The notes: generated by a model not told the origin, from the letters alone. Counted from the first letter of the stretch, positions 45,017 through 61,980 are shown. The stretch is DNA of 64,000 nt from Candidatus Saccharimonadota bacterium (GCA_030528025.1 JAUMZP010000002.1:134930-198929), one strand, 5' to 3'. A program made the numbers and translations.

Positions 45017-45104
45017 CGCTACCTATACAGAACTTATTTGCTGAAGCATACAGCCGCATGGGTACGCGGCACGATAACAACACAGGATAACAAGGGGGTA
45101 TACC

Positions 45105-45725
45105 ATGTATCGGGAATACGGAAAACGCATCGAAGATGTGAGCATTGCGCTGGCTGCGCTGGTGATTCTAGGACTACCAATGCTGCTGGTTGCAGCGGCA
45201 ATCCGCCTCACATCGAAAGGGCCAGCCTTGTTCCGCCAGAAGCGCTTCGGCAAAGATAAGCAGCTATTTACAGTTTATAAATTTCGGACTATGTCTACGA
45301 AAGCACCAAAGAATATGCCAACCAATAGTTTTACCAACGCAGATAGCTATATTACACCACTTGGTGGGGTGCTGCGCAAGCTATCTATCGACGAACTACC
45401 ACAGCTACTCAACGTCATCAAAGGCGAGATGAGTATCGTTGGGCCACGGCCCGTCATTAAGACAGAGAAAAAGCTCATTAGTCTGCGCCAAAAATACCAC
45501 GCTAATTCCGTCAAGCCAGGCATCACTGGCTGGGCGCAGGTAAATGGTCGCGATGACCTAGATGACCAGCGCAAAGCTGAGATGGACGGTGAGTATGTGC
45601 AGCAGCTGAGCTTCCTGACCGACGTTAAGATAATGATAAAAACTATTGGAGCGGTATTGATGATGAGTGGCCATACAGAAGGAAGCAAGCGTGCGGTAAC
45701 AGGAGTCGATAATGCCCTCGAATAA
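45105..45725 (+). CDS. Initiating sugar-phosphate transferase (bacterial sugar transferase, WbaP/CpsE C-terminal type)
   Basis: 'LFRQKRFGKDKQLFTVYKFRTM' and 'DELPQLLNVIKGEMSIVGPRP' motifs. Confidence 0.85.
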   Translation: MYREYGKRIEDVSIALAALVILGLPMLLVAAAIRLTSKGPALFRQKRFGKDKQLFTVYKFRTMSTKAPKNMPTNSFTNADSYITPLGGVLRKLSIDELPQLLNVIKGEMSIVGPRPVIKTEKKLISLRQKYHANSVKPGITGWAQVNGRDDLDDQRKAEMDGEYVQQLSFLTDVKIMIKTIGAVLMMSGHTEGSKRAVTGVDNALE

Positions 45726-46833
45726 GAAAAAAGTCCTGTTCACCTCACACACCGCCAACTTCCAGAAGTTCAACCGGCCCTTCATGCGGATGCTGCGCGA
45801 ACAGGGGTATGAGGTGCATTATGCCTCAATGGGCGAGGAGCAGATCGAGGATTGCGACAAGCAGTTTGTCGTACCATTTACGCGTAGCCCCTTCACACTG
45901 AGTAATGTCCGGGCCTATCGCCAGCTCAAGGAGATTATCAACCACGAGCAGTATGACCTCATCCATACCCACACACCGGTGGGGAGTGTGGTGACGCGCC
46001 TCGCCGCTCGGCAGGCTCGGCAGCGCGGCACGCGGGTGATCTACACTGCTCATGGCTTTCACTTCTTTACGGGTGCGCCGCTGCTTAATTGGCTGGTGTA
46101 CTATCCCATCGAGCGCCTGATGGCGCACTACACTGACGTCCTCATCACGATCAATGCTGAGGACTACGCCCGAGCCAACCGTCACTTTGCCACCAGCGTG
46201 GTGTATGTGCCGGGGGTGGGGGTGGATCCAAAGCGGTTTGACATTACAATCAACAAGAAATCACGGCAGGCAATACGTGCTGAGTTGGGTATTAAGCCAA
46301 ATGATTTCGTAATAATCTATGTCGCTGAGCTGTCAAAAAGGAAGAACCAGTCTTGGCTCCTCAGTGCGCTTAAGACAACCTTACAGCAAGACACATCAAT
46401 GCATCTTTTGCTGGTTGGTGCAGACAGTATGCAAGGGAAGATCCACAAGCAGTCTGTTCGCTACGGTATACAGAGCCAAGTCCATTTCCTCGGGTATAGA
46501 AAGGATATACCAGAGTTACTCCAAGCATCGGACCTATACGTCTCTACATCAAAGCAAGAGGGATTGCCTGTTAATGTTCTTGAGGCGATGATGGGACGTA
46601 TGCCAATTGTCGCCCTGGAATGCCGAGGGGTTGCTGAGCTCCTCTCGTTGGTGGGTGCTACGCCAGCGCGTGATATGCAGACATTCCGTGCGGCTGTCCA
46701 GCGCCACAAAAAGCACCGCTCCTTGCACCGCGAGAAAGACGTAATCCAATCCGCACTATCGCGATACACGACACCAAATATTATGAAAAATATGCGCCAA
46801 CTGTATGAATACGAGGGAGAGGCTGCTCGATGA
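45712..46833 (+). CDS. Glycosyltransferase family 4
   Basis: GT-B fold and the EX7E-like region 'SKQEGLPVNVLEAMMGRMPIVA'. Confidence 0.8.
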   Translation: MPSNKKKVLFTSHTANFQKFNRPFMRMLREQGYEVHYASMGEEQIEDCDKQFVVPFTRSPFTLSNVRAYRQLKEIINHEQYDLIHTHTPVGSVVTRLAARQARQRGTRVIYTAHGFHFFTGAPLLNWLVYYPIERLMAHYTDVLITINAEDYARANRHFATSVVYVPGVGVDPKRFDITINKKSRQAIRAELGIKPNDFVIIYVAELSKRKNQSWLLSALKTTLQQDTSMHLLLVGADSMQGKIHKQSVRYGIQSQVHFLGYRKDIPELLQASDLYVSTSKQEGLPVNVLEAMMGRMPIVALECRGVAELLSLVGATPARDMQTFRAAVQRHKKHRSLHREKDVIQSALSRYTTPNIMKNMRQLYEYEGEAAR

Positions 46834-48077
46834 ACCAAGAAGGAACTATAGCGATCATAACAACCGGCCTCTTGCCGGTGCCTTCGGTGATGGGGGGTGC
46901 GGTAGAGAATCTGGTGCAGAACTTTATCGATGAGAACGAGCGGCAAGGCGGCCCTCGCCTCACGGTATATAGCACCACAACGCCAGATGCTATAGAAAAG
47001 GCTCAGGCGTACACGCATACAGACTTTGTCTTTATACACACCCCATGGGTTATCAGAGCAGCGGACTCTATACTCTACAGTGTATTCCGGCGCCTTGTCG
47101 ATACAAATAAGAGTGCGTCTTTGCGGGCAATCCTGCAGCGGCTGTATTTTTTGAGGAAGGTGTCAAGGCATATTGCTCGCAAAAACCATCGCAAAATACT
47201 GTTTGAGAATGCAATCATCCAGACGCACATCCTACGGTGGCACAAAAATCAGGAACGATACAAAGGTAGAGTCTATGTGCATATTCATAATGAAATAACT
47301 AACTTTTATAAGACATATAAGTATCTAGTAGATGCAAAAATTATCGTCGTGAGTAATTTCATCAAAGATAGCTTGATCGCTAAATCGGCGCAAAGTAATG
47401 AACGCAGCGGCCCACTACAAAACGTATCGGTACTCAAGAACGCAGTTGACAATACCCGGTTTACTGCAATGACAAGGAAGCGCGCGTCGAAGCTATTGCA
47501 TCAACAATATACCATCGATGCTTCAAGAAAGATCGTATTATTCAGTGGTAGACTGACGCCGGAGAAGGGGATTGATGTGTTGCTGCGGGCGCTTGATCGG
47601 GTGAAAGAACAAAATTACCAGCTGCTTGTGGTTGGTAGCTCGTTCTTTGGGACTGATATTAAAAACTTGTTCTTAAAGGAACTTCGCGACCTCACTGAGG
47701 CACATCGGGAGCACGTAACATTTACCGGATATATCGACTATGACAACATGCCGCTACTCTACCGCGGGTGTGACTTTGCCGTGTTGCCGTCGGTGTGTAA
47801 TGATGCTGCGCCATTAACGGTTATAGAATCGATTACAGCAGGCCTGCCGATGATCACAACAAACAGAGGTGGCATACCAGAATATGCATCAGACAAAGCA
47901 GCTATTCTCCTTGATACAGATGAGAACCTTGAGCAGTCTATAGCAAAAAATATAGAAAAACTTCTCAGAGAGGATGACACATTGCAAGCCATGAGTAAAG
48001 TAGGCAAAAGAGCCGCTAAAGATATGACACTATACAATTATTATAGAGGGCTCCTCGAGAAGCTGGGAGAAGAATAA
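46830..48077 (+). CDS. Glycosyltransferase family 4
   Basis: 'SGRLTPEKGIDVLLRAL' and 'LPSVCNDAAPLTVIESITAGLPMITT'. ATGA overlap with the previous gene. Confidence 0.8.
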   Translation: MNQEGTIAIITTGLLPVPSVMGGAVENLVQNFIDENERQGGPRLTVYSTTTPDAIEKAQAYTHTDFVFIHTPWVIRAADSILYSVFRRLVDTNKSASLRAILQRLYFLRKVSRHIARKNHRKILFENAIIQTHILRWHKNQERYKGRVYVHIHNEITNFYKTYKYLVDAKIIVVSNFIKDSLIAKSAQSNERSGPLQNVSVLKNAVDNTRFTAMTRKRASKLLHQQYTIDASRKIVLFSGRLTPEKGIDVLLRALDRVKEQNYQLLVVGSSFFGTDIKNLFLKELRDLTEAHREHVTFTGYIDYDNMPLLYRGCDFAVLPSVCNDAAPLTVIESITAGLPMITTNRGGIPEYASDKAAILLDTDENLEQSIAKNIEKLLREDDTLQAMSKVGKRAAKDMTLYNYYRGLLEKLGEE

Positions 48078-48084
48078 AAAATTT

Positions 48085-49206
48085 ATGAGCACACTACAAA
48101 AGCTAAATTTGAAAAAGATACTCGCGACCACGCTTGTGTTTGTGATGATCACGTACTATTACCTCTACGTAGTATCACCACAGTTGACGGCGTGGCTGCC
48201 TCTAGTGCTGATAATTGGCATTGTTCTATCGGGGATTATTCTGGTAGATTTTGCCATAACAAACAAGCTTACTAGGTGGCATTGTAAATACCTGCTCTTT
48301 TATATTGCGGTACTGGGAGTTTCAGTCATTTTTCAATGGCCAAATGTTGCATGGCTCGCACTAACTTCGAGCACGCTTTTGATCCTCAAGAGAGATGAGT
48401 TTATCAAGATATTTTTCTATACCTCGGTAGGGTTTTATCTCCTCGTGGTTGCTTTGGCGCTCTTAGGGATGTTGCCCATGGTGTATGTTGGGTTTGATGG
48501 TAATGAATCACAGCGGTATGGATTTGCAAAATACTCGCTTGGGTTTGACGGGCCAAACCAAGCGTCGTTGTCATTCTTCCCAATACTGCTCAGCGGTATG
48601 TATCTCTATGGTACTCGCCGGGTGTTTACGGGTATTGCTTTGATTGCTTGTATCGCTGTTGGTATTCTGACTGGTAGTCGCATGGGCCTCTTGCTGAGCC
48701 TTGCCTTTATTCCAACCTATAGGCTACTACTCCACAAGCATGGTGAGCGCAAGAAAAGCACCATAGCATCATATTTGTTTATTCTTGGCCTTCTTGTATC
48801 GTGCATTGGTGCGGCACTGTTTGTTGATAATGACCTAGCAAATAGGGTTATGTCTGGCAGGCCAAAGTTGATTGACCAATATCTGCAATCAGAATACACT
48901 CCATCAGTATTTGGATCGGATGAGGTGTACAATAAGGCCCAGTACGGGACACCTCCGGTCGATAACTTCCCGGTATATATATATGCTCGCTATGGCGTCA
49001 TTGGCTTTATTATATTTGCCTTCGTCTTTTGGCAGGGGATGCGGCGAGAACGCTCGACGAAGATGTATATTCTATTCTTATTCATCATCCTGTATGGATT
49101 TGCAGAAGCCTTCTTCGATATTGCAGCAAAGAACTTCATCTTGCCGATCCTCATGGTTTCACTATTTCAGAAAGGAGCTTTGTATGAGCAGCAAGACACT
49201 CGTTAG
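48085..49206 (+). CDS. Wzy-type polysaccharide polymerase / O-antigen-ligase-family membrane protein
   Basis: About 10 TM helices with a large loop, placed in a Wzx/Wzy locus. Confidence 0.55.
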   Translation: MSTLQKLNLKKILATTLVFVMITYYYLYVVSPQLTAWLPLVLIIGIVLSGIILVDFAITNKLTRWHCKYLLFYIAVLGVSVIFQWPNVAWLALTSSTLLILKRDEFIKIFFYTSVGFYLLVVALALLGMLPMVYVGFDGNESQRYGFAKYSLGFDGPNQASLSFFPILLSGMYLYGTRRVFTGIALIACIAVGILTGSRMGLLLSLAFIPTYRLLLHKHGERKKSTIASYLFILGLLVSCIGAALFVDNDLANRVMSGRPKLIDQYLQSEYTPSVFGSDEVYNKAQYGTPPVDNFPVYIYARYGVIGFIIFAFVFWQGMRRERSTKMYILFLFIILYGFAEAFFDIAAKNFILPILMVSLFQKGALYEQQDTR

Positions 49207-50179
49207 TATTGTTATACCGGTCTACAATATGGAGCAATACCTCAGTCAATGCATCGATAGTGTTATTGCTCAAACATACCGCGCGCTAGAGATCATCATC
49301 ATCAATGATGGCTCATCAGATAGATCGCTTGATATTGCTTATGATCTTGCCCGGAAAGATCAGAGGATTGTCGTTGTTGATAAGCCAAATGGTGGCGTGA
49401 GCTCGGCACGAAACGAAGGTATTGAGCGAATGCAGGGAAGTTACGTTACCTTCGTTGATGCAGATGATTCAATCCACCCAACGTATATTGAGAATCTTCT
49501 GGTTGATGCACAAGCGACTGATGCCGATATAGTGAGCACACCAAAGCACTTGCTTGGTGATGCAGAGCGGCAGGACTTCTTGGATGCGACTATCCCAGTT
49601 GTTGCGTCGGCGTCGGTCTTTACTCGCACTGAGGCATTAACCGCACTATATAATGGACGGCTCGAGAAGGGTAACAATGGCTGCCAACTGTACAAAACAG
49701 AGATTATTACGAGCAATAATATCAGGTTTGATTCTCAGATGGCGATAGGGGAGGATTTTGATTTTTTGGCCCGCGCGATTATATCGACGCGCTGTATTGC
49801 GGTTGACAATCGCAACCTCTATTACTATCGAGCTAACCCGACAAGTGCCGTTCATCAGGAGTTTAACATTCGGCACTACCAAGCAATTGAGAATATGCAA
49901 AAGACAGGCAGAGCACTCCGCAATCCACCAAAGAAACTCGTTCAGGCGATGGATAACAATCTATTTGTCGCCTCGGCATCATACGGTGCATTGATGTATG
50001 CAAGCCGCAAAAAATTCCCAAGAGAATTTGACGAAATCAAACGTACCGTTCGGCGGCTCAAGTGGGGCACACTATTGAGCCGAGACGTCAAGCATAGTGG
50101 TCGAATACGGGCGGCACTGATTATTTGTCTTGGTACCAACCTTGGGTTTATTGCAATTAGAAAATTGATAAAAATCTAA
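49184..50179 (+). CDS. Glycosyltransferase family 2
   Basis: 'VSIVIPVYNMEQYL', 'IIINDGSSD' and 'VTFVDADD' (DXD). The start at 49184 is preferred over the track start at 48872. Confidence 0.85.
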   Translation: MSSKTLVSIVIPVYNMEQYLSQCIDSVIAQTYRALEIIIINDGSSDRSLDIAYDLARKDQRIVVVDKPNGGVSSARNEGIERMQGSYVTFVDADDSIHPTYIENLLVDAQATDADIVSTPKHLLGDAERQDFLDATIPVVASASVFTRTEALTALYNGRLEKGNNGCQLYKTEIITSNNIRFDSQMAIGEDFDFLARAIISTRCIAVDNRNLYYYRANPTSAVHQEFNIRHYQAIENMQKTGRALRNPPKKLVQAMDNNLFVASASYGALMYASRKKFPREFDEIKRTVRRLKWGTLLSRDVKHSGRIRAALIICLGTNLGFIAIRKLIKI

Positions 50180-50196
50180 AAGACGAGGATATTCTT

Positions 50197-51333
50197 ATGA
50201 AAAAAGTCGGTATTATCACCTTTCATCGTTCGCATAATTGTGGGTCTATTATGCAAGCATATGCACTGCAAAAAGTCTTGCAAACGCGGTATGGCATTGC
50301 GCCCGAATTCATCGATTTCTCGAGCCCTGGTCAGCAAAAGCTCTACTCAGTCTTTAGTGGAGACAACAGTGCAAAGGGTATGCTGCGTAATGTCGGGCGG
50401 GCATTTATCTACAACCGGCTCAAGAAGAATCAGGCGAGCTACGATAGGTACATCAAGAAGCATCTGAGGCTATCTAGCCACGCATTTACCACCAACAAAG
50501 AATTGCAAGAGGCTCATTTTGCGTACGATGCGTATATTGCGGGGAGTGACCAGGTGTGGAATATAATGATTGATGATTATGATCCTGCCTATTTCTTGAA
50601 TTTTGTTGAAAAAAAGAAGCCAAAGATATCATACGCGGCCTCATTTGGTGCACGGCGAGTAAGTAGCAACACTAATCATCCCGAAACAATTCGTGATATG
50701 ATACAGGACTTCAACTACATCTCGGTCAGAGAGCCAAATGGACAAAAATGGCTAGCCGAAGATTTTGCAATCAAAAGCACCGTGGTTCTCGACCCAACGT
50801 TACTCATTGATGGGAGCGATTATCGCGATGGAGAAGAGCGACCAGCAGAGTATATCAAGAAGGACTATATCTTTATTTACGCAGTGAGTGTGTCGCGTAA
50901 GTTTGAACAACGGATACAGCAACTCGCACGAGAAGAAGGGCTCAAGATTGTTATATGGCAGCCTGATACGTGGCTCAAAATGAAAGGGGCAGCAAAGGGT
51001 TATATGCTACCAAAAGATGAGAACCCAGGGAAATACTTATGGTATATACGTCATGCCAAATATGTCTTTACGGCGTCTTTCCATGGTGTGATATTTTGTG
51101 CCCAGTATAGAAAGAATTTCTGGATCTTGTACAATAAAGGAATGAATTATGACAAAGACGATCGTATTCTTTCGCTCGTGGATAGCCTTGCATTGTCAGA
51201 TCGGCTTCTGCCGGAAGATGATACAGAAAAGAATTTACGATCTGCCGTTGATTATACAGCCTACGAAAAAAACCTTGCCAAGAGGCGTCAGCAATCATTT
51301 GAGTTTCTTGACAAGGCGGTAAAAAACATATGA
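50197..51333 (+). CDS. Polysaccharide pyruvyl transferase family protein
   Basis: N-terminus 'KKVGIITFHRSHNCGSIMQAYALQKVL' matches the PS_pyruv_trans signature 'iLtfHrahNyGavLQayALq'. Confidence 0.65.
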   Translation: MKKVGIITFHRSHNCGSIMQAYALQKVLQTRYGIAPEFIDFSSPGQQKLYSVFSGDNSAKGMLRNVGRAFIYNRLKKNQASYDRYIKKHLRLSSHAFTTNKELQEAHFAYDAYIAGSDQVWNIMIDDYDPAYFLNFVEKKKPKISYAASFGARRVSSNTNHPETIRDMIQDFNYISVREPNGQKWLAEDFAIKSTVVLDPTLLIDGSDYRDGEERPAEYIKKDYIFIYAVSVSRKFEQRIQQLAREEGLKIVIWQPDTWLKMKGAAKGYMLPKDENPGKYLWYIRHAKYVFTASFHGVIFCAQYRKNFWILYNKGMNYDKDDRILSLVDSLALSDRLLPEDDTEKNLRSAVDYTAYEKNLAKRRQQSFEFLDKAVKNI

Positions 51334-52766
51334 GCAGATCTGCCGAGCTAATAAAAAACACCGCGCTCCTCACTATTAGCAAGATCACGACGCAGGCCGT
51401 AGCGTTCTTGCTTGTTCCTCTGTATACATTTTATTTGTCCGCAAGTGACTATGGGCAGGTTGACCTTATCTTGACGTATATTGCTTTGTTTGCGCCGATA
51501 TTATCGGTTCAACTGGAGTTTGCAGCATTTCGGTTTGCGATCGATTCGCGCAATGATGCGGATAGGCTCAGTAGTATTCTATCAACGATATTTAAAATAG
51601 TTCTGCCTATAACAGGACTAGCTATTGCTTTGTTAGCTATAGGGTCGCTGTTTGTTGCTATCCCGTATTTGATTCTTGTGTGTCTCAATATTGTTCTCTC
51701 TATCGTATCTGCGGTGCTACTGCAATTTACGCGAGGAGTTGGTGATGCAAAGCATTTTTCTATCGCGAGCATACTCATTGGCGTGGTGAGTACACTATGC
51801 TCCTTTGTCTTTGTTGCGGTCATGCGGCTACCTGCCTTTAGTTTGATGATATCATTAGTGCTCGCGAATTTAGTAGGCATAGGCTACCTGTTAGTGACTA
51901 TTCGGCGCAAGAAACGCATTCGCTTGCTACACGGCGAGACGCACCAATCGTTGCGCTCGGATATGCTGCGGTATGCTATTCCACTTTTGCCAAATAATAT
52001 CGCATGGTGGGTGCTCAATGTCTCAGACAGGACTATTATTTCGATGTTTATTGGTGCGGCGGCAAATGGTATGTATGCGATTGCGAATAAATTTGCATTT
52101 GTCCCAAGTATATTGTTTGGCATATTTAGTATGAGTTGGAGCGAATCTGCCTCGATTCATATTACTTCGCAAGATAGAGATGCATTCTTTTCGAAGGTGT
52201 CTGACATGTGTTTGCGGCTATACTCATTTGCAACAGTGGTGTATGTGTTGGTGATAGATATATTTTATTCACGAATCGTTGGCGCAGAGTATGCGGATGC
52301 GCATGGCTTAACACCCATCTTGGCGATAGGGGCGTTCTTCCAGGCGATCCTTGGCAACTACTCTGCGATATACATTGCTAAGAAAAAGACAAAAGAGGTT
52401 GCCAATAGCTCCCTTGCGGCGGCAGTAATTAACATCGTCGTCAACCTTGCTTTGGTAGGTGTTATTGGTGTGTATGCTTCGGCACTCTCGACTGCTATAG
52501 CCTTTGCTTGCATGGCAGTGATACGGCATATTCATGTCCAACGGTATGTTAAGGTGCGCTATCGTGCACAAAGCATTATATGCTCTGGAGCTGTATTAAT
52601 AGCTGGGGGGATTATCTACTATACTCATGTGCCAAAGATCGTATCTATAGTAGCCTGTGTGGTTGCGATGCTCGTCGGTATTGTTTGCACAAAGGATCTC
52701 TTCGCAAAGATGCCCGTCAAAAAATACTTTCGCAAAAACCTAGACAAGATGCTCCATCATAAATAA
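51330..52766 (+). CDS. Wzx-type oligosaccharide flippase (MOP/polysaccharide biosynthesis protein family)
   Basis: 478 aa with about 14 TM helices. ATGA overlap with the upstream gene. Confidence 0.75.
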   Translation: MSRSAELIKNTALLTISKITTQAVAFLLVPLYTFYLSASDYGQVDLILTYIALFAPILSVQLEFAAFRFAIDSRNDADRLSSILSTIFKIVLPITGLAIALLAIGSLFVAIPYLILVCLNIVLSIVSAVLLQFTRGVGDAKHFSIASILIGVVSTLCSFVFVAVMRLPAFSLMISLVLANLVGIGYLLVTIRRKKRIRLLHGETHQSLRSDMLRYAIPLLPNNIAWWVLNVSDRTIISMFIGAAANGMYAIANKFAFVPSILFGIFSMSWSESASIHITSQDRDAFFSKVSDMCLRLYSFATVVYVLVIDIFYSRIVGAEYADAHGLTPILAIGAFFQAILGNYSAIYIAKKKTKEVANSSLAAAVINIVVNLALVGVIGVYASALSTAIAFACMAVIRHIHVQRYVKVRYRAQSIICSGAVLIAGGIIYYTHVPKIVSIVACVVAMLVGIVCTKDLFAKMPVKKYFRKNLDKMLHHK

Positions 52767-53253: not shown

Positions 53254-54396
53254 CGGCATGATAGAATATACGCACTCGCAATTGTTTGCAAGAGACTCGT
53301 GTACATTTATATGTTATTTTCTGCGGCAAGTCAGGTAGTAGATGAGATGATGTCTGTGGGTTACAAGCAATGAGTGGTGAGATGCATGGTTTGGTTGCAA
53401 TATATAAAATTAGGCAGCAATCTCGAACAAAAATCCCAAAAAATGAAACAAACGTTTGCTAATTGTTCGATATAGTGCTACACTGTTGTAGGGGTACTGA
53501 TAAGGTACTTCGAACACATGTTAGCACAGAGGTAGCTATGGGTTAGGCTACTGGTGCAGCGATCAGCCGTGGGCGCTATCGCCAGTTGGCAATGGGTTTG
53601 CCAGAGGTCTCCACCAAGGTGGATAGGCGCGATGGGTGATCATTCCTCCTCTTTTGCTCATGAGCGAGCCATTATGTTTGCGTTTCTCTCGGAGAGAAAG
53701 CGCCTTGTTCTAAGCCAAGCTTAGCGTTATTTCCTTTTTCGCTAGCAAGATACCGCAGTAGATGACGCTGCGGTATTACTATATGTACACTAATGGTCGT
53801 ATCTTTGGGAAGCTCTTTTGCGAGAGATAGATAATCTTACTTGCCCTGGTAGCGCCGGACAATTGGTGCTACAGAATACAATGCCATAGGTAGGACGAGA
53901 AGCTCACCATCTTGCCCAAGCCGGTACAATATGCCAGCCGCCACAAGATGAAGCACGACGATTCCTGCCGTCAGCCACGGCAAGAAAGCTCGTGGTATGC
54001 ACGGCGCAAACAAGAGATAGAGAATACCGCCAAAGCAGTCGAGTGCCAATGCGAGATGTAAGAGGGATGGTGTCACAGTGTTAGACTCCTTATAGTAAAG
54101 TGATGTTATAGCCTAGCATACTGTGATTACATGGTGCTGTCAAATGATCGGTAGATAAATACCATAGTCTTTGCTTTTTTGCTTATCCTGCTTTTCACGC
54201 CATTTTTGCAAACGGCGTATGAGGATAGGCTGCTCCAATCTATTTTTTGGACTCTGATGTGGGGTGGCTAATAGAGAGTAGCTATCAGTGTTCTGGGGGG
54301 TAATGAAAGGAGTGAAATTGGCCAAAATACTCGGTTTATCGTATATGTATACTCACCTAAGTGATGCCACTTGTGTTTAACTATTTTGCATTATGC

Positions 54397-54405
54397 TGCT
54401 ATAAT
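54397..54405 (+). promoter_or_regulatory. Extended -10 box TGCTATAAT, 9 nt upstream of the pyk ATG (leaderless)
   Basis: Exact TGCTATAAT. ATG at 54415. Confidence 0.55.
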
Positions 54406-54414
54406 ATGTACGCA

Positions 54415-55845
54415 ATGAATAATTCTACAAAACGTACAAAGATACTGGCTACTCTGGGGCCAGCTACCAACACACCAGAGAAAATAGAAGCTTTGATCCG
54501 GGCGGGTGCCAACGGCTTTCGCCTCAACTTTAGCCACGGCTCGTACGAAGAGCGGCTTGACCAAATTGCGTGGATTCGTAAGGCGAGTGCCACTGTTGGT
54601 CGCACCGTCGCGATTTTGCAAGACTTGCAAGGGCCAAAGATTCGCCTCGGCGTACTCAAGGATAACCACTTCGACATTGCGGCAGGCGATGAAATTATCC
54701 TCGACCATGCAGTGGAAGAGCACAATGGCAGCAATCGTCTGCCCATTCAGTACAACCTTGCCGACAAGGTCAAGGTAGGTGAGCCTGTCTACCTCTTCGA
54801 TGGTAAATTGCGCGGTGAGATGACCGAGCGCGTTAGCGACACCGCTATCAAGGTACGCCTGAGTAATGATGGCTTCTTGATGAGCCGCAAGGGGCTCAAC
54901 CTGCCAGACACCGACTTTGGTGGTGACATTCTGACACCAAAGGACCTGGCTGATGTCGAGTTTGGGGCAGATAAAGATATTGATTTCGTAGCACTGAGCT
55001 TTATCCAGAGCGCGGAGGATATCAACAACCTACGCCAGATTTTGCTGAGCCATGGTTCGACTGCGCAGATCATTGCCAAGGTCGAGACCAAGGCGGCTAT
55101 CGAGCCAGAAACACTCAAGGAAATCGTCAAGGCTGCTGATGGTGTGATGGTTGCTCGCGGTGACCTCGCGGTCGAGACGAGCCCAGAGATTGTGCCTATC
55201 GTTGAGCGCGAAATTATCCGCCTCTGCCGCAAGTATGGCAAGCTCTCGATTGTTGCGACACAGATGCTAGCCAGTATGGTCGATAACCCCGAGCCAACCC
55301 GGGCTGAGGTAAGTGACGTTGCAACTGCTGCCATCCTCGGAACAGATGCCGTGATGCTTTCTGACGAGACGGCCAATGGTGACTACCCAGTTGAGGCTGT
55401 TAAGATGATGGCCGATACCGTGCGCTACACTCAGTCGCGCTGGCCGATGAATGACATGCCCATCAAGGAGGGCCGCACCAACCGCCGACTCAATGCGATT
55501 GCTCATGCTGCCGTTGATGTTGCTCACAAAGTTGATGCAACAGTGATCGTTGCTGAGACACGCTCGGGTGCGACTGCTGCACGTATTGCTGCTTGCCGTC
55601 CAGAATTGCCAATCGTCGCTGTGGCGCCAGATGCCCGCGTAGCGCAGCAGCTTGCACTGTCGTATGCAACGCGCAGCTTCGTCCGGCCCGACAGCCAGCA
55701 GCTGGGGAGTGACCTCACGCGCGAGCTACTCAGCCAAGGTGCCTTTGGTGATGTATCATCGGTGACTGCCGTCATCATCAGTGGTTGCCAGCCTGGCGCA
55801 ACTGGTGGAACAGATACGCTGAGCGTCCGCACCTTCGAGCGCTAG
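54415..55845 (+). CDS. pyk: Pyruvate kinase
   Basis: 'RTKILATLGPAT', 'GANGFRLNFSHG' and 'MVARGDLAVE'. Confidence 0.92.
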   Translation: MNNSTKRTKILATLGPATNTPEKIEALIRAGANGFRLNFSHGSYEERLDQIAWIRKASATVGRTVAILQDLQGPKIRLGVLKDNHFDIAAGDEIILDHAVEEHNGSNRLPIQYNLADKVKVGEPVYLFDGKLRGEMTERVSDTAIKVRLSNDGFLMSRKGLNLPDTDFGGDILTPKDLADVEFGADKDIDFVALSFIQSAEDINNLRQILLSHGSTAQIIAKVETKAAIEPETLKEIVKAADGVMVARGDLAVETSPEIVPIVEREIIRLCRKYGKLSIVATQMLASMVDNPEPTRAEVSDVATAAILGTDAVMLSDETANGDYPVEAVKMMADTVRYTQSRWPMNDMPIKEGRTNRRLNAIAHAAVDVAHKVDATVIVAETRSGATAARIAACRPELPIVAVAPDARVAQQLALSYATRSFVRPDSQQLGSDLTRELLSQGAFGDVSSVTAVIISGCQPGATGGTDTLSVRTFER

Positions 55846-55869
55846 ACCCGCTAGAACACCCTATAGAAG

Positions 55870-55901
55870 CACCCGCCTATCACTACGGTGGGTGTTTTTA
55901 T
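55870..55901 (+). terminator. Intrinsic terminator after pyk
   Basis: Stem CACCCGCC/GGTGGGTG followed by TTTTTATT. Confidence 0.6.
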
Positions 55902-56317
55902 TGGTGAAGGCAAGGTAATTGTTTTTACTTCGCATACTGTACTGTTGTATATAATACAGCGTATATGAAAAAGTACTGTAAAAATAACATCATGTAGGAA
56001 GAGTACCTTTTGCAAAAATATCAGCCAATCGACCAGAGGTAGACTATTGCCTAGAGTGCAACACGATGGTATGAATAGGGCAATCAGTGCATCGATACTT
56101 CGCACCAAATGAGCAAGGTGAGTTGCACCACAATGTCAAATAAGCTACACTAGAGAAAACAACATAAGCGATACATTGTGGGCATACGATTGATCAACAA
56201 CCAAGGTAGTATCCAAAACTCGATACGAGGCTTCGGTTCGTTGTATCAGGGTGTGGACTGGTGTGCACCACACAAAAACTGTAGTGTTTATATAAAAACA
56301 AACAAAGGAAACCGTTC

Positions 56318-59300
56318 ATGCCAGATATAGACTTCGACGAACTCGACCGCGCGGTGCACGACCTCATGCGCCAGTCTGGTCAGCTGCCAGCAACGCAAGA
56401 CAAGCCGTCTGAAGCGCCTGCCGCCACACCAAGCAAAGATTCGACCTCATCAAGTATGCAAGCTGCATCGTCTCAACCAGCAGCGTCGGCAGCTACCTCA
56501 GCTCGTCCTGAGGTGAATGACGACGCGCAGGATACAAGCACGTCAAGCGCTCAGAGCGATACTTCGACAGATGCTGCACAGCAGGTGGACTCATCAGATG
56601 ATACAGTGTCAGCTAAGCAGTCACCCGCGCCAGCACCTCAGGATGATGCTGATAGTACCGATGAAACGGTGCAGACCGATGACGATACTGCAACCGCTGA
56701 CGCCAATTCTGATACCGATACAAATAGTGCGTCGGCTCGCCACCGTGGCGTGACAATTATGCCATTATCTCAGCAGGCGGACGGAGCGGAGCTAACAGGG
56801 GAGCCATATGAGCCAGTTGAGTCCGAGCCGGTTATTGACCATGCCCGGGCACTGTCGGAGTCGGTCGTTGCATCGGAGCGCGAACCAGCTTCGATGCCTG
56901 CTACGCCAGAGCAACCTGATACGGCATATAATGATATAGAGTTAGCCCAAACACCCTTTGTAGATATGGTAGCGCCAGTGCAGACAACGGCAGAAGATAC
57001 GCCATCACAGAGTCAGCCTGCAGCAGTTGTAACAGTCGATCCTGACGATATTATTACCCCTGCTAGCGATGACGACGATGAGAGCGACGACACATATACC
57101 GATCGAGCGCAGTTCTTTGGCCGGTCGGCAGCGCGGCCATTCTTTGCGCCGCCTCGTGCAGTAACGCCAGTGGACGATGTATCATCCACAACAGTTTCAG
57201 ACGTGTCAGCTCCTATGGTGGAGACAGATAACACTGGGCCATTAACCCAGAGCGATGGAGCAGTGAGTGACGAAACACCTGCTGTGGCTACGGAGGAAGA
57301 AGCGCCAGCAACGATCGACCAAGTTGAGTCAGAGACGCCAACAATGCCGTATCAGTTTGCAGGTGAAGATGCTGAGAGCGATGATGACGACGATGAAGCG
57401 CTTGCCGGCCGCCTCAATGAGGTGAACCACACGCAAGATGATGGGACTGAGCCAGCGCAAGTATCCGTTGTTGATGATCTCGATGACGCATTTGCTCCGC
57501 AACCACTTATCATTCCACCGCCCAAAGAGGAGGGTGATATGGCGCTGCCTCCTGCCAAGACAGTGGTAGAGCCAATGGATGATACACATACTACTGATGA
57601 TATACCAGCTGCCGCGTCGCAGGATGAGTCTGATAGTATAACCAACACGAGCAGCACTAATGACACTGACGACAATCATTTGCTCTATGCACCAGAAACA
57701 CCGGCAAACACAGATGTGCCAGCAGTGTTGAGTAGTAGCGATGCTTCTGATACTGAGACAGTGCAGCCACTGAACCAGCCGCTCAAGGGGCCGGCCTGGC
57801 CCGAATTGCAATACGATGAGCCGGATGGCACGCCAGATGTGCAAGCCCCTGATGGAGACCATACTGCACCTATGTGGCCAGAGGTAGTAGCAGAAAATAC
57901 GAGCGCTGTGGATGATAGCCAGACGGCGGCCCAAGCAGTTGATGCGAGTGTGCCAAGCGAGTATGAATCGTTTGATAGTGAGAGTAGCTCCTGGGTTGAG
58001 CCCACCACTGTGCCAGGTCAACCACAGGCAGGCGATATCGCTCCTGCAGAATTGTTGACGGCTGAGCACACTATGCCTGATGTAGCAGCAGACAATGACA
58101 GCCCATTGCCACAGCCAAAGGAAGTGCTTGCTGAGGATGCTATGCCAGAAGCTCGCGTCGATCGCCCATTGCCACTCCTTAGTACATATAATGAGCACCG
58201 GGCAGCTCCTGAGCCACACGTTGATACCCCACCGTTGTCTGATTCGCAAGAGGAAGCGAATGCCATTGATGTAACTGATGCCGCTCAGAATACGAATGAT
58301 ATTGCGCAAGGCATGACAGATATGCAATTGCTGGATACTCCTGATGACCAAGCAGAACAGCCATATGCACCCGCTGCACCACTGTTTGCCCCAGCCGATG
58401 ATGTTGTATCTAAGGCGCAGCAGATTATTGCTGCTCGCCCTGAGGTATCCGCCAATAATACACCAACACTTCCGCAAGAAGAGGAAGACGCGCCGAAGAA
58501 TGCGCCCGATGTCGTGCCAATTACGCTTTCTCAGTCAGCCGACCAACAGACTGAGCCATCGGTTGCCGATGCACCAGCTGTGCATGCTGTAGACGAGACA
58601 GCACCAGCCGAGTCAAATGATGATCAAGCAGCCGCTTCAGCTATACAGCGTCCGCGTGGTCGCTTTATGGATATTGTGGGCGGAGCAGCCCCGGTTGCTG
58701 CAGCCGCCCAAACGGCTCGCCCGCGAGTGCGCCGCCAAGGTGCGGTGGTTGAGCCACTAACAAGTAGCGCACCAGTGGTGGGTATGGATATTCGTCCTGT
58801 ACCTGGCCACGAGCCAGCGCAGCATCACATAGGAGCAGCCCCAGATACTCCAACAGGTGATAACGCTAAAGTATCGGATGTAGCAACGCCTGATGTGGCG
58901 CTATCTGCAGATGCGCTTGACCTCCAGCCTGGTGATGAAAAGCCGCTTGGCTACACACCATTCTTGCCTGATGCCGAGACCAAGGTAGATAAGCGTCCGC
59001 TCGGTGGTGCCGACACGCTGGTGGGTAATGCGCCAACTTTGGCTGATACTGCTCCGATGGGGATGTATCATGATGAACCTGGTGTATTTGGCATGGCTCC
59101 AGCTGATAATAACGAGCCAGTGGTACCGTCGCATCTCTTTGCGCCGCATGATGAGCATGCCTCGGCTGAGCAATTCATCGATGCACTGACAGACACAAGC
59201 GAGAATGCGCCATCACTCTATCCGGCCGATCACTACCCACTACCTGAGCAAGACACGCCAGAGACTGCCACGCCGGATGATGAGCCCATGTACCAGCTAG

Positions 59301-59794
59301 AGGATCACTATGGTGCTGACCGGTCGCTCTACCCAGATGAACCAGCCGACTCTCATGAGACATCAGCCGATGGAGCAGGACCGCAGTTTGCAGAGGATGA
59401 GATTGACCTGAGTCTGCCTGTGCCTGGCCCTGGTGAGCCAGATATCGACTACTACGGCGAAGCAGAGCGAGTCGAAGCCGAGCCAATGACGGTGGAGACT
59501 GAGTGGGATAATGAGCCAGACACGAGCGACCAAGCACACGTCAATACCATCGAAGAAGCGGCTGCCACCACCCAAAATGGTGATACTGCGCTCGCCCTCC
59601 ACCAAGCACTTCAGGAAGAGAACGAAGGCAATGTGGTCGCACCAATCTACAGTGCTGAAGAATTTACTCGCGCACCGAAAAAGTCGCGCCGCCGTCCCGA
59701 ACAAGCTGCTGGCTGGATTTGGCTGCTGTGGATCGTCATGTTACTGGCGCTTGGTGCTGGTCTTGGCGCAGTCTATTACACACTCTTTACCTAG
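56318..59794 (+). CDS. Giant (1158 aa) hyper-acidic, low-complexity protein with a single C-terminal TM anchor
   Basis: Uninterrupted ORF with SD sequence AAAGGAAA. Asp/Glu/Ala/Pro/Thr/Ser dominate and Lys/Arg are nearly absent until '...RAPKKSRRRPEQAAGWIWLLWIVMLLALGAGLGAVYYTLFT*'. Confidence 0.8.
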   Translation: MPDIDFDELDRAVHDLMRQSGQLPATQDKPSEAPAATPSKDSTSSSMQAASSQPAASAATSARPEVNDDAQDTSTSSAQSDTSTDAAQQVDSSDDTVSAKQSPAPAPQDDADSTDETVQTDDDTATADANSDTDTNSASARHRGVTIMPLSQQADGAELTGEPYEPVESEPVIDHARALSESVVASEREPASMPATPEQPDTAYNDIELAQTPFVDMVAPVQTTAEDTPSQSQPAAVVTVDPDDIITPASDDDDESDDTYTDRAQFFGRSAARPFFAPPRAVTPVDDVSSTTVSDVSAPMVETDNTGPLTQSDGAVSDETPAVATEEEAPATIDQVESETPTMPYQFAGEDAESDDDDDEALAGRLNEVNHTQDDGTEPAQVSVVDDLDDAFAPQPLIIPPPKEEGDMALPPAKTVVEPMDDTHTTDDIPAAASQDESDSITNTSSTNDTDDNHLLYAPETPANTDVPAVLSSSDASDTETVQPLNQPLKGPAWPELQYDEPDGTPDVQAPDGDHTAPMWPEVVAENTSAVDDSQTAAQAVDASVPSEYESFDSESSSWVEPTTVPGQPQAGDIAPAELLTAEHTMPDVAADNDSPLPQPKEVLAEDAMPEARVDRPLPLLSTYNEHRAAPEPHVDTPPLSDSQEEANAIDVTDAAQNTNDIAQGMTDMQLLDTPDDQAEQPYAPAAPLFAPADDVVSKAQQIIAARPEVSANNTPTLPQEEEDAPKNAPDVVPITLSQSADQQTEPSVADAPAVHAVDETAPAESNDDQAAASAIQRPRGRFMDIVGGAAPVAAAAQTARPRVRRQGAVVEPLTSSAPVVGMDIRPVPGHEPAQHHIGAAPDTPTGDNAKVSDVATPDVALSADALDLQPGDEKPLGYTPFLPDAETKVDKRPLGGADTLVGNAPTLADTAPMGMYHDEPGVFGMAPADNNEPVVPSHLFAPHDEHASAEQFIDALTDTSENAPSLYPADHYPLPEQDTPETATPDDEPMYQLEDHYGADRSLYPDEPADSHETSADGAGPQFAEDEIDLSLPVPGPGEPDIDYYGEAERVEAEPMTVETEWDNEPDTSDQAHVNTIEEAAATTQNGDTALALHQALQEENEGNVVAPIYSAEEFTRAPKKSRRRPEQAAGWIWLLWIVMLLALGAGLGAVYYTLFT

Positions 59795-59829: not shown

Positions 59830-61980
59830 ATGGATGATATACTCAATGGATTAAATGACGCCCAGCGTTCGGCAGTGGTTGCATCTGATGGCCCGGTCCT
59901 AATTCTTGCAGGGGCGGGTAGTGGCAAGACAAAAACGCTCACACACCGCATTGCTTACCTCCTGACCGAGCAGGGCGTCTGGCCGAATGAAGTCTTGGCT
60001 GTTACCTTCACTAACAAGGCAGCTCGCGAGATGCGCCAGCGCCTCTGGCAGATTGCTGGGCACACCCAGGCAAGCTCGCCTCACATGTCCCAAACCGACC
60101 AACCACCTCGCTCCTTTATGCCATGGATGGGGACATTCCATGGCATTTGTGTGCGGATTTTGCGGCGTGATGGTGCGGCCATCAGCATTCCACCTAATTT
60201 CGTGATTTATGACGAAGACGACCGTCAAGGGCTCATCAAACAAGCGATGAAGCAGCTCTCTATTGGTACGGACAGGCTTAAACCACGTGCTGCCAGTGCA
60301 GCCATTAGCAAAGCTAAGAATCAACTCCTCTCGCCCAGTGACTATGCGGCTAGTGCGCGGTTTCCCTTCCAGCAGGCAGTGGCAGAGATCTACCAGCTGT
60401 ATGAGCAGCTGCTGGCTGATGCAGGTGCGCTCGATTTTGATGACCTCTTGCTCGAGACGGTACGCCTCCTGCGAGACCACTCGGTGGTGCGTCAGCGCTA
60501 CCAGACGCAGTTTAAGCATATTCTCGTTGACGAGTATCAGGACACAAATGCTGCGCAGTATCAGATCATCAAGCTGCTCGTAAACCCACGCCGCAATATC
60601 TGCGTGGTAGGAGATGACTGGCAGTCGATCTATAGCTGGCGTGGCGCAGATTTTACGAATATTCTCAACTTCGAGCGCGATTTCCCGGGGGCGCTGGTGG
60701 TGAAGCTTGAGCAAAATTATCGCTCGACAGGGGCCATTCTCGAAGCTGCTGGCAATGTGATTAACAAAAATCAGCAGCGGACGGATAAAACCCTCTGGAC
60801 GGCAGCAGGCCCAGGTGCGCCAGTGCACGTACAAGCTGCCTATGATGAGGCAGAGGAGGCATATACCATTGCGAGCCAGATTGCTACGCAGGTGGCGACC
60901 GGTGAGCGCGACTATAGCGACTTTGCTGTCCTGTACCGCACCAATGCACAGAGCTATGCCTTTGAGCGAGCGTTCAACCAGCACCACGTGCCGTACCAGT
61001 TGGTTGGTGGAGTACGATTTTATGATCGTAAGGAGATTAAGGATATCTTGGCCTATCTGCGTCTTATCTACCAGCCAAATGACCGTGTGAGTTTTAGTCG
61101 GATCGCTAATGTACCAACGCGGGGGATTGGAACAACGAGCCTAGAGAAATTCCTTATCTGGCAGGGCACTAGTGGGCTCGATATCATTAGTGCGCTGGTT
61201 AATGCCAGCCAGGTAGCGACACTGACGAAGCGGGCGCAGACTACCCTGACGCAGCTGGGCCAGTTGTTACGCGGCTTCCAAGCGCAGGTCGAGGCTGCGG
61301 CTGATCCAAGTCAACTGATTGATGATGTGATTACTAAGACGGGCTACCGCAATTATATCCTTGATGGCTCGCCTCAGGCTGATGACCGCGAGGCTAACCT
61401 CAGTGCGTTATTGTCTGATGCGCAGGCCTTTGTCAGCATGCCAGACTTTCTTGAGGAAGTTGCGCTTATGTCTTCGGCCGACCAAGCGACGGGTGCGCAC
61501 AGCGTGACGCTTATGACGCTCCACGCTGCCAAGGGGCTAGAGTTTCCAGTGGTATATATGGTGGGGCTTGAGGACGGCCTGTTTCCCAGTGCCAGGGCAC
61601 TCGAGGAGGGGGCATCCGCACTCGAAGAGGAGCGTCGTCTCTGTTATGTCGGGATGACACGCGCTCGGCAGGAGCTCTATATGAGCTATGCGCAGAGTCG
61701 CTTGCAATTTGGTAGCCGCAGCTACAACAGCCCATCACGCTTTCTCGACGATATGGGCATGAGCCTGTCGATGGTGCATACCGAACCAGCTACACCAGTG
61801 TATGACGACGCGTTAGATGAGGTCATGCCGTATGAGATTGGCGATATGGTACGGTCGCTCCAGTTTGGTGATGGTGAGGTGATCGACATCGATGGCATGG
61901 CAGTGAGTGTGCGCTTTACAAATGGCTCTACCAAGAAGCTCAATGTGCAGTATGCCCGCCTTGAGAAAATTACTCCCTAG
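59830..61980 (+). CDS. pcrA: ATP-dependent DNA helicase PcrA/UvrD
   Basis: 'LILAGAGSGKTKTLTHRIAYL', 'VDEYQDTN', 'VTLMTLHAAKGLEFPVVYMVGLEDGLFP', 716 aa. Confidence 0.92.
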   Translation: MDDILNGLNDAQRSAVVASDGPVLILAGAGSGKTKTLTHRIAYLLTEQGVWPNEVLAVTFTNKAAREMRQRLWQIAGHTQASSPHMSQTDQPPRSFMPWMGTFHGICVRILRRDGAAISIPPNFVIYDEDDRQGLIKQAMKQLSIGTDRLKPRAASAAISKAKNQLLSPSDYAASARFPFQQAVAEIYQLYEQLLADAGALDFDDLLLETVRLLRDHSVVRQRYQTQFKHILVDEYQDTNAAQYQIIKLLVNPRRNICVVGDDWQSIYSWRGADFTNILNFERDFPGALVVKLEQNYRSTGAILEAAGNVINKNQQRTDKTLWTAAGPGAPVHVQAAYDEAEEAYTIASQIATQVATGERDYSDFAVLYRTNAQSYAFERAFNQHHVPYQLVGGVRFYDRKEIKDILAYLRLIYQPNDRVSFSRIANVPTRGIGTTSLEKFLIWQGTSGLDIISALVNASQVATLTKRAQTTLTQLGQLLRGFQAQVEAAADPSQLIDDVITKTGYRNYILDGSPQADDREANLSALLSDAQAFVSMPDFLEEVALMSSADQATGAHSVTLMTLHAAKGLEFPVVYMVGLEDGLFPSARALEEGASALEEERRLCYVGMTRARQELYMSYAQSRLQFGSRSYNSPSRFLDDMGMSLSMVHTEPATPVYDDALDEVMPYEIGDMVRSLQFGDGEVIDIDGMAVSVRFTNGSTKKLNVQYARLEKITP

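Follow-up and report, generated by a model that had tools for sequence, protein, structure and literature searches.

We analysed a 64,000-nucleotide stretch of DNA (hereafter the window) from Candidatus Saccharimonadota bacterium (GCA_030528025.1 JAUMZP010000002.1:134930-198929), focusing on a single large gene within it, here called gene X. Gene X starts with ATG and runs through 1158 codons with no internal stops. Its product has a database twin, NCBI MDO4661219.1 (P0001), which is labelled ‘hypothetical protein’ in a Candidatus Saccharibacteria metagenome-assembled genome (MAG). On sequence evidence, gene X is a lineage-expanded member of a previously undescribed Saccharibacteria family of proteins predicted to be tail-anchored and disordered. 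The gene, its ribosome-binding site and the conserved elements of the protein are arranged as follows.

56318..59794, + strand: gene X, encoding a 1158-residue acidic, predicted disordered, C-tail-anchored protein (from its open reading frame (ORF), composition, database identity and ratio of nonsynonymous to synonymous divergence, dN/dS).

56305-56309, + strand: Shine-Dalgarno (SD)-like AAGGA, 8 nt 5' of the ATG, in a block 98-100% conserved in 16 congeners.

56324..56374, + strand: residues 3-19, N-terminal acidic amphipathic helix that is the family signature, DIDFDELDRAVHDLMRQ; invariant in A1; AlphaFold2 (AF2) helix 6-19 with a predicted local distance difference test score (pLDDT) of 61-77.

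56399..58633, + strand: residues ~28-772, linker 1, a clade-specific expanded polyanionic spacer with clade-conserved islands (from its length, charge, dN/dS of 0.45 and pLDDT below 50).

56873..57064, + strand: residues 186-249, ASEREP...DDIITPA module inside linker 1, common to the sister giant clade in the same order and at near-equal spacing.

58649..58684, + strand: residues 778-789, family motif RPRGRFMDIVGG; invariant in congeners and the sister clade, local dN/dS 0.05.

58769..58798, + strand: residues 818-827, second MDI-type motif, APVVGMDIRP; invariant in congeners and the sister clade.

58931..59008, + strand: residues 872-897, family motif GDEKPLGYTPFLPDAETKVDKRPLGG; P, K, R, P and L invariant in 48 short members, local dN/dS 0.02.

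59546..59698, + strand: residues 1077-1127, C-proximal conserved block; invariant in A1, dN about 0.

59705..59782, + strand: residues ~1130-1155, C-terminal transmembrane (TM) tail anchor with a conserved Trp and GAGxG; Kyte-Doolittle hydropathy (KD) 2.34, AF2 helix 1128-1157 with pLDDT 72-77.

A preliminary description of the window, made from the sequence by eye, had reported this uninterrupted ORF and its SD sequence, both of which are borne out. The protein is composed largely of Ala (14.4%), Asp (12.2%), Pro (11.1%), Thr (8.5%), Glu (7.9%) and Ser (7.6%), and contains no cysteine. Asp and Glu together make up 20.1% of residues, below the more than 25% first estimated, and Lys and Arg 4.0%. 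The net charge is -187 by residue count, or about -185 at pH 7, and the isoelectric point is about 3.5 rather than about 3; the protein is still the most acidic of the 40 window ORFs of at least 200 residues (median Asp+Glu 9.8%). The second most acidic (12333-13058, 241 residues, Asp+Glu 19.5%) has no Pfam match and, unlike the gene X protein, looks globular.

Tandem Repeats Finder (minimum score 30) detected no tandem repeats in gene X, as had been claimed. Searches of Pfam, NCBIfam, PADLOC and PDB sequences returned zero matches for the gene X protein, and nothing credible emerged from these libraries when the queries were the giant, short family members, isolated termini or a 48-member profile. 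The early statement that the protein has no recognisable domain therefore holds for domain libraries, but the protein is not featureless: it carries short conserved motifs. None of these motifs was found elsewhere among the window proteins.

The sole hydrophobic segment of the protein is the TM segment near its end, with KKSRRRPE before it and few residues after it. The C-terminus, KKSRRRPEQAAGWIWLLWIVMLLALGAGLGAVYYTLFT, consists of a basic patch, one TM helix containing the Trp and GAGxG, and a tail of at most 10 residues. These features extend across the family, in which TM residues W365, G378 and G380 (P0127 numbering) vary little or not at all, a median of 5 Lys or Arg residues lie within the 14 residues ahead of the TM core, and ~6 residues follow it. 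An LPXTG signal (LP.[TSA]G) and a hydrophobic N-terminus or signal peptide are both absent from the gene X protein; hydropathy averaged over 11 residues does not exceed 0.3 in the first 60 residues, and the N-terminus is strongly acidic. The protein thus has the sequence hallmarks of the C-tail-anchored class: a single TM segment within ~30 residues of the C-terminus and no N-terminal signal sequence. Because the Lys/Arg cluster precedes the TM segment and a signal peptide is lacking, the whole N-terminal acidic mass is predicted to be cytoplasmic (N-in), and computation in this respect supports the tail-anchored topology originally put forward.

Structure prediction and composition both point to disorder, again as first described. 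The AF2 model of the giant protein, built from a congener alignment, has a mean pLDDT of 33, and values above 50 are confined to helix 6-19 and the TM helix at 1128-1157, with residues 26-1128 below 50. For a 391-residue family member modelled from a 48-sequence alignment, the mean pLDDT is 53, and the predicted helices are 6-18, 365-389 and, weakly, 270-280. In a charge-hydropathy analysis, the cytoplasmic part of the gene X protein (<H> 0.423 against a boundary of 0.473) falls on the disordered side, and the products of the neighbouring pyk, PcrA and Mur genes all fall on the folded side. These results indicate that the cytoplasmic part is disordered apart from its terminal helices.

Short conserved elements punctuate this predicted disorder. 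The protein starts with MPDIDFDELDRAV and displays the N-terminal motif [KS]-D-[IL]-D-F-D-E-L-D-[RK]-A-V, which begins at residue 3 in 226 of 229 family members examined. The corresponding helix has a charge of -4 and a hydrophobic moment of 0.56, within the top 2% of shuffles. Two internal motifs follow in the order typical of the family, GRFMD[IV] (residues 781-786) and then PFL.DAKVEKRPLG (residues 881-896). The invariant columns of these motifs in the 48-member alignment are G-F-M-D and K-R-P-L, the G, F, M and D of RPRGRFMDIVGG being invariant in the 48 short members. Two MD[IV] motifs also occur in some short members, such as the one at locus L043. The C-proximal block contains a predicted helix (1089-1103), an IYS..EF motif and the basic patch KKSRRR (residues 1121-1126), and it corresponds to the QQY / IYD..YHQP / KKKSGW region of the family.

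From N- to C-terminus, the family architecture comprises the N-terminal motif, linker 1, R.GRFMDV.HP, linker 2, PL.SPFL.DAKVEKRPLG, linker 3 with an LP.EL..DL..IE helix, SI.QQY.E.P ... IYDT..YHQPL.HP, KKKSGW, and the TM segment with its Trp and GAGxG. Every one of these elements is recognisable in the gene X protein.

We identified the wider family by an exhaustive profile search with the giant form as query, which covered 1.84 billion representative proteins. The 61 hits comprise 3 giant clusters (1126-1160 residues), 6 fragments (60-167 residues) and a remainder nearly all of 283-421 residues. Most of the short proteins align to the giant query in 3-4 separate stretches that include the GRFMD and KRPLG regions. 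In all 53 complete proteins examined, the N-terminal motif can be recognised and a TM segment lies at the C-terminus, and nearly all match the FMD and KRPLG patterns. A homology search using only the central 146 residues of the giant was uninformative (235 candidates drawn, one fragment matched).

With a profile built from 48 short members, the number of family clusters (90% identity) rises to at least 2,931. The 120 best hits listed for this profile include none with a Pfam domain; all but one (‘lactocepin’) are named ‘hypothetical protein’, and their taxon labels are Saccharimonadales or Chromulinivoraceae. Examples include MFZ1243275.1 (Ca. Saccharimonas sp., 391 residues) and HSW78271.1 (Chromulinivoraceae, 419 residues). 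A typical member has ~390 residues and a net charge of about -32.

Gene X shares with short members the N-terminal motif at residue 3, GRFMD, KRPLG, the Tyr-rich pre-anchor block, the basic patch, the single W/GAGxG TM segment, a position directly 5' of pcrA and predicted disorder. It differs from them in being ~3 times longer (1158 versus ~390 residues), in its charge (about -187 versus about -32) and in its linker 1 (~758 versus ~65 residues), and it carries extra clade-specific islands. The gene was first thought to have no annotated counterpart, which is true of annotation, but a large unannotated family exists; the protein is an expanded member of that widespread family and shares its giant size with a sister clade. 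Apart from this impression of uniqueness, the first description of the protein was largely right. The domain libraries contain no description of the family, and our literature searches turned up none of it or of tail-anchored, disordered Saccharibacteria proteins in general. Proteins anchored by their tails and membrane tethers that are disordered are already known kinds, so what is new is this family, with the window holding its most extreme clade-specific variant.

The family occupies a conserved genomic address. In the window, the features flanking gene X are the following, with a Mur ligase gene lying 3' of pcrA.

54361..55845, + strand: pyk (pyruvate kinase; Pfam accessions PF00224 and PF02887), the 5' neighbour of gene X.

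55874-55894: terminator-like hairpin after pyk.

56105..56317, + strand: highly conserved non-coding leader of gene X, 96-100% identical in 16 species in which flanking genes have a synonymous divergence (dS) of 0.3-0.5.

59830..61980, + strand: pcrA/uvrD-type helicase gene (Pfam accessions PF00580 and PF13361), 35 nt 3' of gene X, the adjacency being kept at all loci.

We identified complete orthologues of gene X in 36 species-representative congener genomes (73-87% identity), each in the context pyk-X-pcrA-mur; two further congener loci are cut by contig ends and are not counted among the 36. At ten complete distant loci (pyk 59-88% identical), the gene directly 5' of pcrA starts with MSDIDFDELD[RK]AV and ends with a basic patch and TM segment. 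Its length is 298-392 residues at eight of these loci, 704 residues at L047 and 1126 residues at L037. Gene X therefore sits directly 5' of pcrA at all 46 loci (10 complete distant, 36 complete congener), and the gap between the two genes is 3-76 nt at every locus while PcrA identity ranges from 58% to 97%. The window copy conforms to this arrangement, with 35 nt to pcrA and the glycolytic gene pyk upstream.

Both pgk and tpiA lie between pyk and gene X at 8 of the 10 distant loci; a ninth has tpiA, with no pyk within the stretch fetched. Where tpiA is present at distant loci, gene X starts 1-16 nt past its stop codon. The position of gene X had been said to give no operon hint, which proves wrong: the slot 5' of pcrA and 3' of pyk/tpiA is kept at every Saccharibacteria locus examined.

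The window locus departs from the short-form loci in having no pgk or tpiA and in that gene X, rather than abutting tpiA, has a conserved 5' leader of its own. In tblastn searches, pgk and tpiA were absent from the whole 64-kb window, and the pyk-X gap holds no detectable pseudogene remnant. A core block of ~50 nt within the leader (GAAAACAACATAAGCGATACATTGTGGGCA.A.GATTGATCA.CAA) is kept even in the sister clade at L037, and the first 30 codons of gene X (56318-56407) have an unusually low dS of 0.11. The leader has no Rfam match even at E up to 1, is not significantly stable when folded (z -1.65) and contains no convincing small ORF; on these Rfam and folding results we rejected the idea that it is a stably folded RNA or one already known. 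Its role may be that of a promoter, operator or leader replacing the tpiA-coupled expression of short-form lineages. The 5' part of the pyk-X gap (55846-56104; compared across L001-L040) is variable, with length classes of ~500 and ~620 nt that arise from a ~120-nt indel.

The giant size of the gene X protein lies almost wholly in linker 1. We measured linker lengths by dissecting proteins at their motif positions, with the following results.

Short forms (n=109, medians): linker 1 of 65 residues, charge -3; linker 3 of 140 residues; total charge -32.

Window clade (n=139): linker 1 of 758 +/- 3.4 residues, charge -136 +/- 4.4; linker 3 of 234 residues; total charge -189.

Sister clade (n=2; P0124 and P0125/L037): linker 1 of about 704 residues, charge about -101; linker 3 of about 213 residues; total charge about -146.

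Linker 1 has thus grown ~12-fold (from about 65 to about 758 residues) in the window clade, where it carries about -0.18 charge per residue. Total length and charge in the 139 congeners are 1159 +/- 4.4 residues and -189 +/- 4.5, and the giant forms of the two sister clades together span about 1130-1165 residues and charges of -141 to -200. Linker 1 of the sister clade is also long (~700 residues) and acidic (-0.14 charge per residue), yet it cannot be aligned to that of the window clade, and BLAST of the window protein against P0125 yields an alignment limited to residues 675-1157. Both clades nonetheless contain ASEREP followed by DDIITPA, spaced 57 residues apart in the window clade and 58 in P0124 and P0125, and their linkers share 2-3 6-mers against about 0.2 expected. 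The same order and near-equal spacing of these two elements imply that the insert predates the split between the clades. Since then its sequence has changed so far that almost no resemblance is left, but its length and acidity have been kept.

At L047, linker 1 has expanded a second time, independently, to 359 residues; there it is rich in Pro, Ala, Ser and Thr and nearly neutral. Linker 1 is thus a recurrently expandable module whose hyper-acidity is clade-specific. Hyper-acidity and giant size are accordingly neither family-wide traits nor peculiarities of one strain. We also considered duplication of core motifs as the origin of the insert and rejected it, since the pairs RRRGVTIMPL~RPRGRFMDIV and ARVDRPLPLL~TKVDKRPLGG score no better than shuffles (z -0.7 to +0.6).

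The length of the protein is tightly held within the window clade, with a spread of only +/- 4.4 residues over a dS of 0.25-0.6, whereas the adjoining intergenic region carries the 120-nt indel. Substitutions in the linkers of this clade are balanced between loss and gain of acidic residues (240 versus 205), a pattern compatible with compositional equilibrium that alone is no proof of selection on charge.

Gene X is under purifying selection, and its protein evolves 4-10 times faster than those of its neighbours. By the Nei-Gojobori method against 34 congener species, its dN/dS is 0.255 (range 0.23-0.29), compared with 0.024 for pyk, 0.068 for pcrA and 0.044 for mur at comparable dS. About a dozen blocks, amounting to roughly 556 of the 1158 residues, show little or no variation among congeners; with this conservation and a Shannon entropy of 3.0-3.8 bits in every complete 50-residue block, the initial characterisation of the protein as almost entirely low-complexity was overstated. 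The dN/dS is 0.08 in the conserved blocks and 0.45 in the stretches between them, and dS is practically equal (0.46 and 0.44). The blocks are therefore conserved at the protein level and not through a low local mutation rate. Islands inside the linker 1 insert, such as residues 241-270 and 331-360, have dN/dS values of 0.03-0.08.

Genetic data bearing on the family come from Southlakia epibionticum, where the locus order is pyk (SEML1_0671), tpiA (SEML1_0670), SEML1_0669 and a UvrD-type helicase gene (SEML1_0668) (PMC10633639 Table S1). SEML1_0669 is a hypothetical gene of 1479 bp that overlaps tpiA by 4 nt and ends 18 nt before the helicase gene (PMC10633639). We consider it the positional orthologue of gene X, an assignment made by gene position only; the same position predicted a family member at 10 of 10 readable distant loci. 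Transposon sequencing (Tn-seq) recorded 57, 76 and 72 insertion sites in SEML1_0669 at the three time points and classed the gene as non-essential at each of them, and its normalised reads fell about 5-fold, from 3326 to 1678 to 667 (PMC10633639 Table S1). In the same experiment, reads fell from 2706 to 742 for pyk and from 5101 to 2154 for the helicase gene, and several neutral genes stayed flat (PMC10633639). SEML1_0669 has no Pfam, Foldseek or ECOD hit, and a language model named it ‘SPOR domain-containing protein’ with a low-confidence score of 0.63 (PMC10633639 Table S2).

Several lines of evidence suggest, with a probability that we put at roughly 0.45, that the gene X protein is a disordered scaffold tethered to the membrane and studded with motifs, with a polyanionic spacer specific to its clade. 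Support for the architecture is good, and from it we infer the scaffold function; among the roles initially offered for the protein, which also included a cation buffer and a nucleoid or envelope spacer, that of a membrane-tethered polyanionic scaffold is closest to what the evidence favours. In such a scaffold, the one C-terminal TM helix would anchor the protein and leave its entire N-terminal mass in the cytoplasm, where the N-terminal helix and linear motifs (GRFMD[IV], PFLPDA.KV[ED]KRPLG and the Tyr-rich pre-anchor block) would dock one or more cytoplasmic partners. The conservation of the TM helix suggests specific packing, and this helix, with its Trp and GAGxG, may pack on itself or on a membrane partner. 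The fast-evolving linkers between motifs would set the reach of the docking sites from the membrane.

Disordered chains follow the scaling law Rg = 0.254 N^0.522 nm, which for linker 1 gives a root-mean-square (rms) span of about 5 nm when it has 65 residues and about 20 nm when it has 758. In the giants the reach would thus be roughly 20 nm rms, compared with roughly 5 nm before linker 1 grew, and a large negative brush would lie under the membrane. Saccharibacteria cells are only a few hundred nanometres across, of which ~20 nm is a large fraction. The 12-fold growth would give the N-terminal helix a much larger volume to sweep and place about -136 of charge under the membrane.

Partners for these docking sites can be nominated by gene order only, which makes PcrA and the neighbouring glycolytic enzymes candidates. 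A bolder version of the proposal, which we regard as improbable, is that the family forms a tail-anchored disordered ‘fishing-line’ hub recruiting such machinery to the membrane of ultra-small cells. The giants would then add a ~20 nm polyanionic brush that organises the zone beneath the membrane, for instance by keeping the nucleoid or ribosomes out, and the conserved 5' leader would control expression.

A number of points weigh against the scaffold reading. The term ‘scaffold’ is itself drawn from architecture and conservation pattern, and the gene X product in this MAG is known from its sequence alone. Because the congener charge standard deviation of 4.5 is no tighter than that of a balanced random walk over ~30 charge-changing substitutions, selection on charge within the clade is not demonstrated. 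The islands were picked by conservation, so their low dN is partly circular, and the equality of dS is the only independent evidence. The Tn-seq result is linked to the family through the gene position of SEML1_0669, and its read depletion could partly reflect a polar effect on the helicase gene. Finally, the gene X copy of one congener is frameshifted. This copy (L038:6001-6384; pyk 97.8% identical) has 89% DNA identity to gene X, with frameshifts and in-frame stops in the first ~130 codons before a contig end; we rejected a highly divergent allele as its explanation, and it is either a pseudogene or an assembly error. It is the sole exception, as neither the window nor the 36 complete congener copies show a merged or frameshifted gene. 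The TM segment is likewise kept in every complete orthologue, and the acidic region, while indeed an expansion, is old and length-constrained and not unique to this strain.

We weighed the scaffold reading against four other explanations. Gene X could encode a dedicated PcrA/UvrD partner that tethers or sequesters the helicase at the membrane, or whose polyanionic linker acts as a DNA mimic or nucleoid-excluding brush. Adjacency to pcrA at every locus (gaps of 3-76 nt, and 18 nt in Southlakia), the lack of any terminator-like site in the 35-nt X-pcrA spacer and the charge of the giant forms (-141 to -200) are consistent with this role, although tpiA coupling is equally tight (1-16 nt at distant loci, a 4-nt overlap in Southlakia), so that gene order does not single out PcrA. 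The published helicase-interaction motif of proteins that partner the PcrA C-terminal domain (CTD), [VIL]-D-x-x-T-G-E-[VIL]-[VILT], sits on an exposed beta-hairpin (PMC8318588). This motif is present in 0 of 229 family members examined, and a lone TGE in the gene X protein (residue 160) is not conserved in congeners; we therefore rejected a CTD partner of this kind. DNA mimicry cannot be the ancestral function, because typical members are only mildly acidic (median -32) and their linker 1 is near-neutral. Overall, we consider a dedicated helicase role unlikely, if still worth keeping in view. Slightly less probable in our estimation is that the ~390-residue ancestor was functional but the 12-fold growth of its linker was a runaway process, neutral or nearly so, in a disordered region that has no separate function. 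A linker dN/dS of 0.45, far more relaxed than that of the rest of the protein, the failure of linker 1 to align between sister clades, the independent L047 expansion with different chemistry and a congener charge variation compatible with drift would all fit such a history. The same dN/dS is still well below 1, however, and linker 1 holds at 758 +/- 3.4 residues over 139 sequences with dS up to 0.6, next to an intergenic region with a 120-nt indel. The insert also contains many invariant islands (dN/dS 0.03-0.08) and two motifs kept in the sister clade at a spacing of 57 versus 58 residues, and a genome inferred to be ~1 Mb would not usually carry ~2.2 kb of coding sequence without a use.

The two remaining explanations place the protein in the cell envelope. 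An envelope or division tether like ZipA or FtsN, linking a cytoskeletal or divisome component to the membrane, is suggested by the combination of an anchor, a long Pro-rich or charged linker and short binding elements, which generally resembles divisome tethers, as well as by the Mur ligase gene 3' of pcrA and the machine-assigned SPOR name of SEML1_0669 (score 0.63; PMC10633639 Table S2). We think this doubtful. The SPOR (PF05036), ZipA and FtsN Pfam models match neither giant nor short forms, for SPOR at E up to 1, and the ~6 residues beyond the membrane make a peptidoglycan-binding SPOR role impossible. ZipA and FtsN have the opposite polarity, division genes are not consistently linked to the locus, and the positional orthologue of gene X is non-essential. 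Least probable of all, and in our judgement very remote, is an extracellular acidic mass acting as a surface-anchored adhesin, cation binder or host-interaction factor through the C-terminal anchor. In its favour, many cell-surface proteins have acidic regions rich in Pro, Thr and Ser, a cluster for polysaccharide biosynthesis is located a few kb 5' of gene X, and Saccharibacteria need surface contact with their hosts (PMC10633639). Against this stand the strongly acidic N-terminus with no signal peptide (maximum 11-residue hydropathy 0.3 in the first 60 residues), the absence of LPXTG, and a basic cluster N-terminal to the TM segment, which by the positive-inside rule puts the N-terminal mass inside. 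SEML1_0669 is also not among the Patescibacteria-enriched or essential envelope factors of the Tn-seq study (PMC10633639). A sortase-anchored surface protein was rejected on the same grounds, as the protein has neither LP.[TSA]G nor a hydrophobic N-terminus and its charges precede the TM segment rather than trail it.

The polysaccharide cluster (44387-52766) encodes a Wzz-like protein, a Bac_transf sugar transferase, two GT4 and one GT2 glycosyltransferases, a polysaccharide pyruvyl transferase and a Wzx-type flippase. Its G+C content is 0.43-0.45, compared with about 0.52 elsewhere, and the cluster may on this account be horizontally acquired. The mechanical ORF list also contains two pairs of long ORFs that lie on the same strand and share over 300 nt (48085-49206/48872-50179 and 21461-22966/22650-23693). 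The GT2 domain of 48872-50179 begins at residue 112, and the true start is probably downstream of the listed TTG. A LytR-CpsA-Psr (LCP) protein (38736-40478) has a ~120-residue basic, disordered cytoplasmic N-terminal tail that starts with MAGRNSIDGFRS; the likeness between ‘SIDGF’ (‘NSIDGFR’) in this tail and ‘RFMDIV’ in the gene X protein is too weak to use.

An apparent one-off oddity thus becomes a definable phylum-wide family of at least 2,931 clusters that lacks a Pfam or NCBIfam model. A large part of the conserved gene set in the ~1-Mb genomes of Saccharibacteria is without known function, and this family offers a clear architecture, testable short motifs, a conserved address and an orthologue in the genetically tractable Southlakia epibionticum. 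It also constitutes a natural experiment on disordered linkers, as the same linker has grown 5- to 12-fold on at least two occasions, with differing chemistry and tightly held length. If the motifs do recruit PcrA or glycolytic enzymes, the family would represent a membrane-organising hub peculiar to ultra-small epibionts; if they do not, it would be a moderately interesting conserved protein that is non-essential in culture.

Among known proteins, SecG is the usual gene after tpiA in many bacteria. SecG proteins (PF03840) have about 75-110 residues and two TM segments, and we rejected this identity for gene X, whose product has a single TM segment and no PF03840 hit. Southlakia, moreover, has a separate essential SecG, SEML1_0635 (PMC10633639).

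The closest parallels to the gene X protein are architectural. It resembles the DUF883 proteins in lacking a signal peptide and in having its only TM segment at the very C-terminus, behind an N-terminal part that is predicted to be cytoplasmic. Escherichia coli ElaB, YqjD and YgaM, which belong to DUF883, are C-tail-anchored, helical proteins of ~100 residues with reported ribosome binding. Members of the gene X family are 3-11 times longer, are predicted to be disordered and have no sequence relationship to them; membership was rejected for lack of a Pfam hit at E up to 1. ZipA-type tethers share the design proposed for the gene X protein, in which an anchor, a long flexible linker and a short binding element hold a partner within a set distance of the membrane. 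ZipA, however, has an N-terminal TM segment, and hence the reverse polarity, and a folded FtsZ-binding end, whereas the gene X protein has only motifs and a helix and does not match the ZipA model.

The C-terminal scaffold of E. coli RNase E is a membrane-associated disordered region whose microdomains bind a helicase, a glycolytic enzyme and PNPase. Conserved microdomains in fast-evolving disordered sequence and association with the membrane are common to this scaffold and the gene X protein, and the encoding of gene X between glycolytic genes and a helicase gene is suggestive in this light. The gene X protein differs in having no catalytic domain, in being acidic rather than Arg-rich, in carrying a true TM segment instead of an amphipathic helix and in lacking sequence similarity, so that the likeness between the two is one of architecture only.

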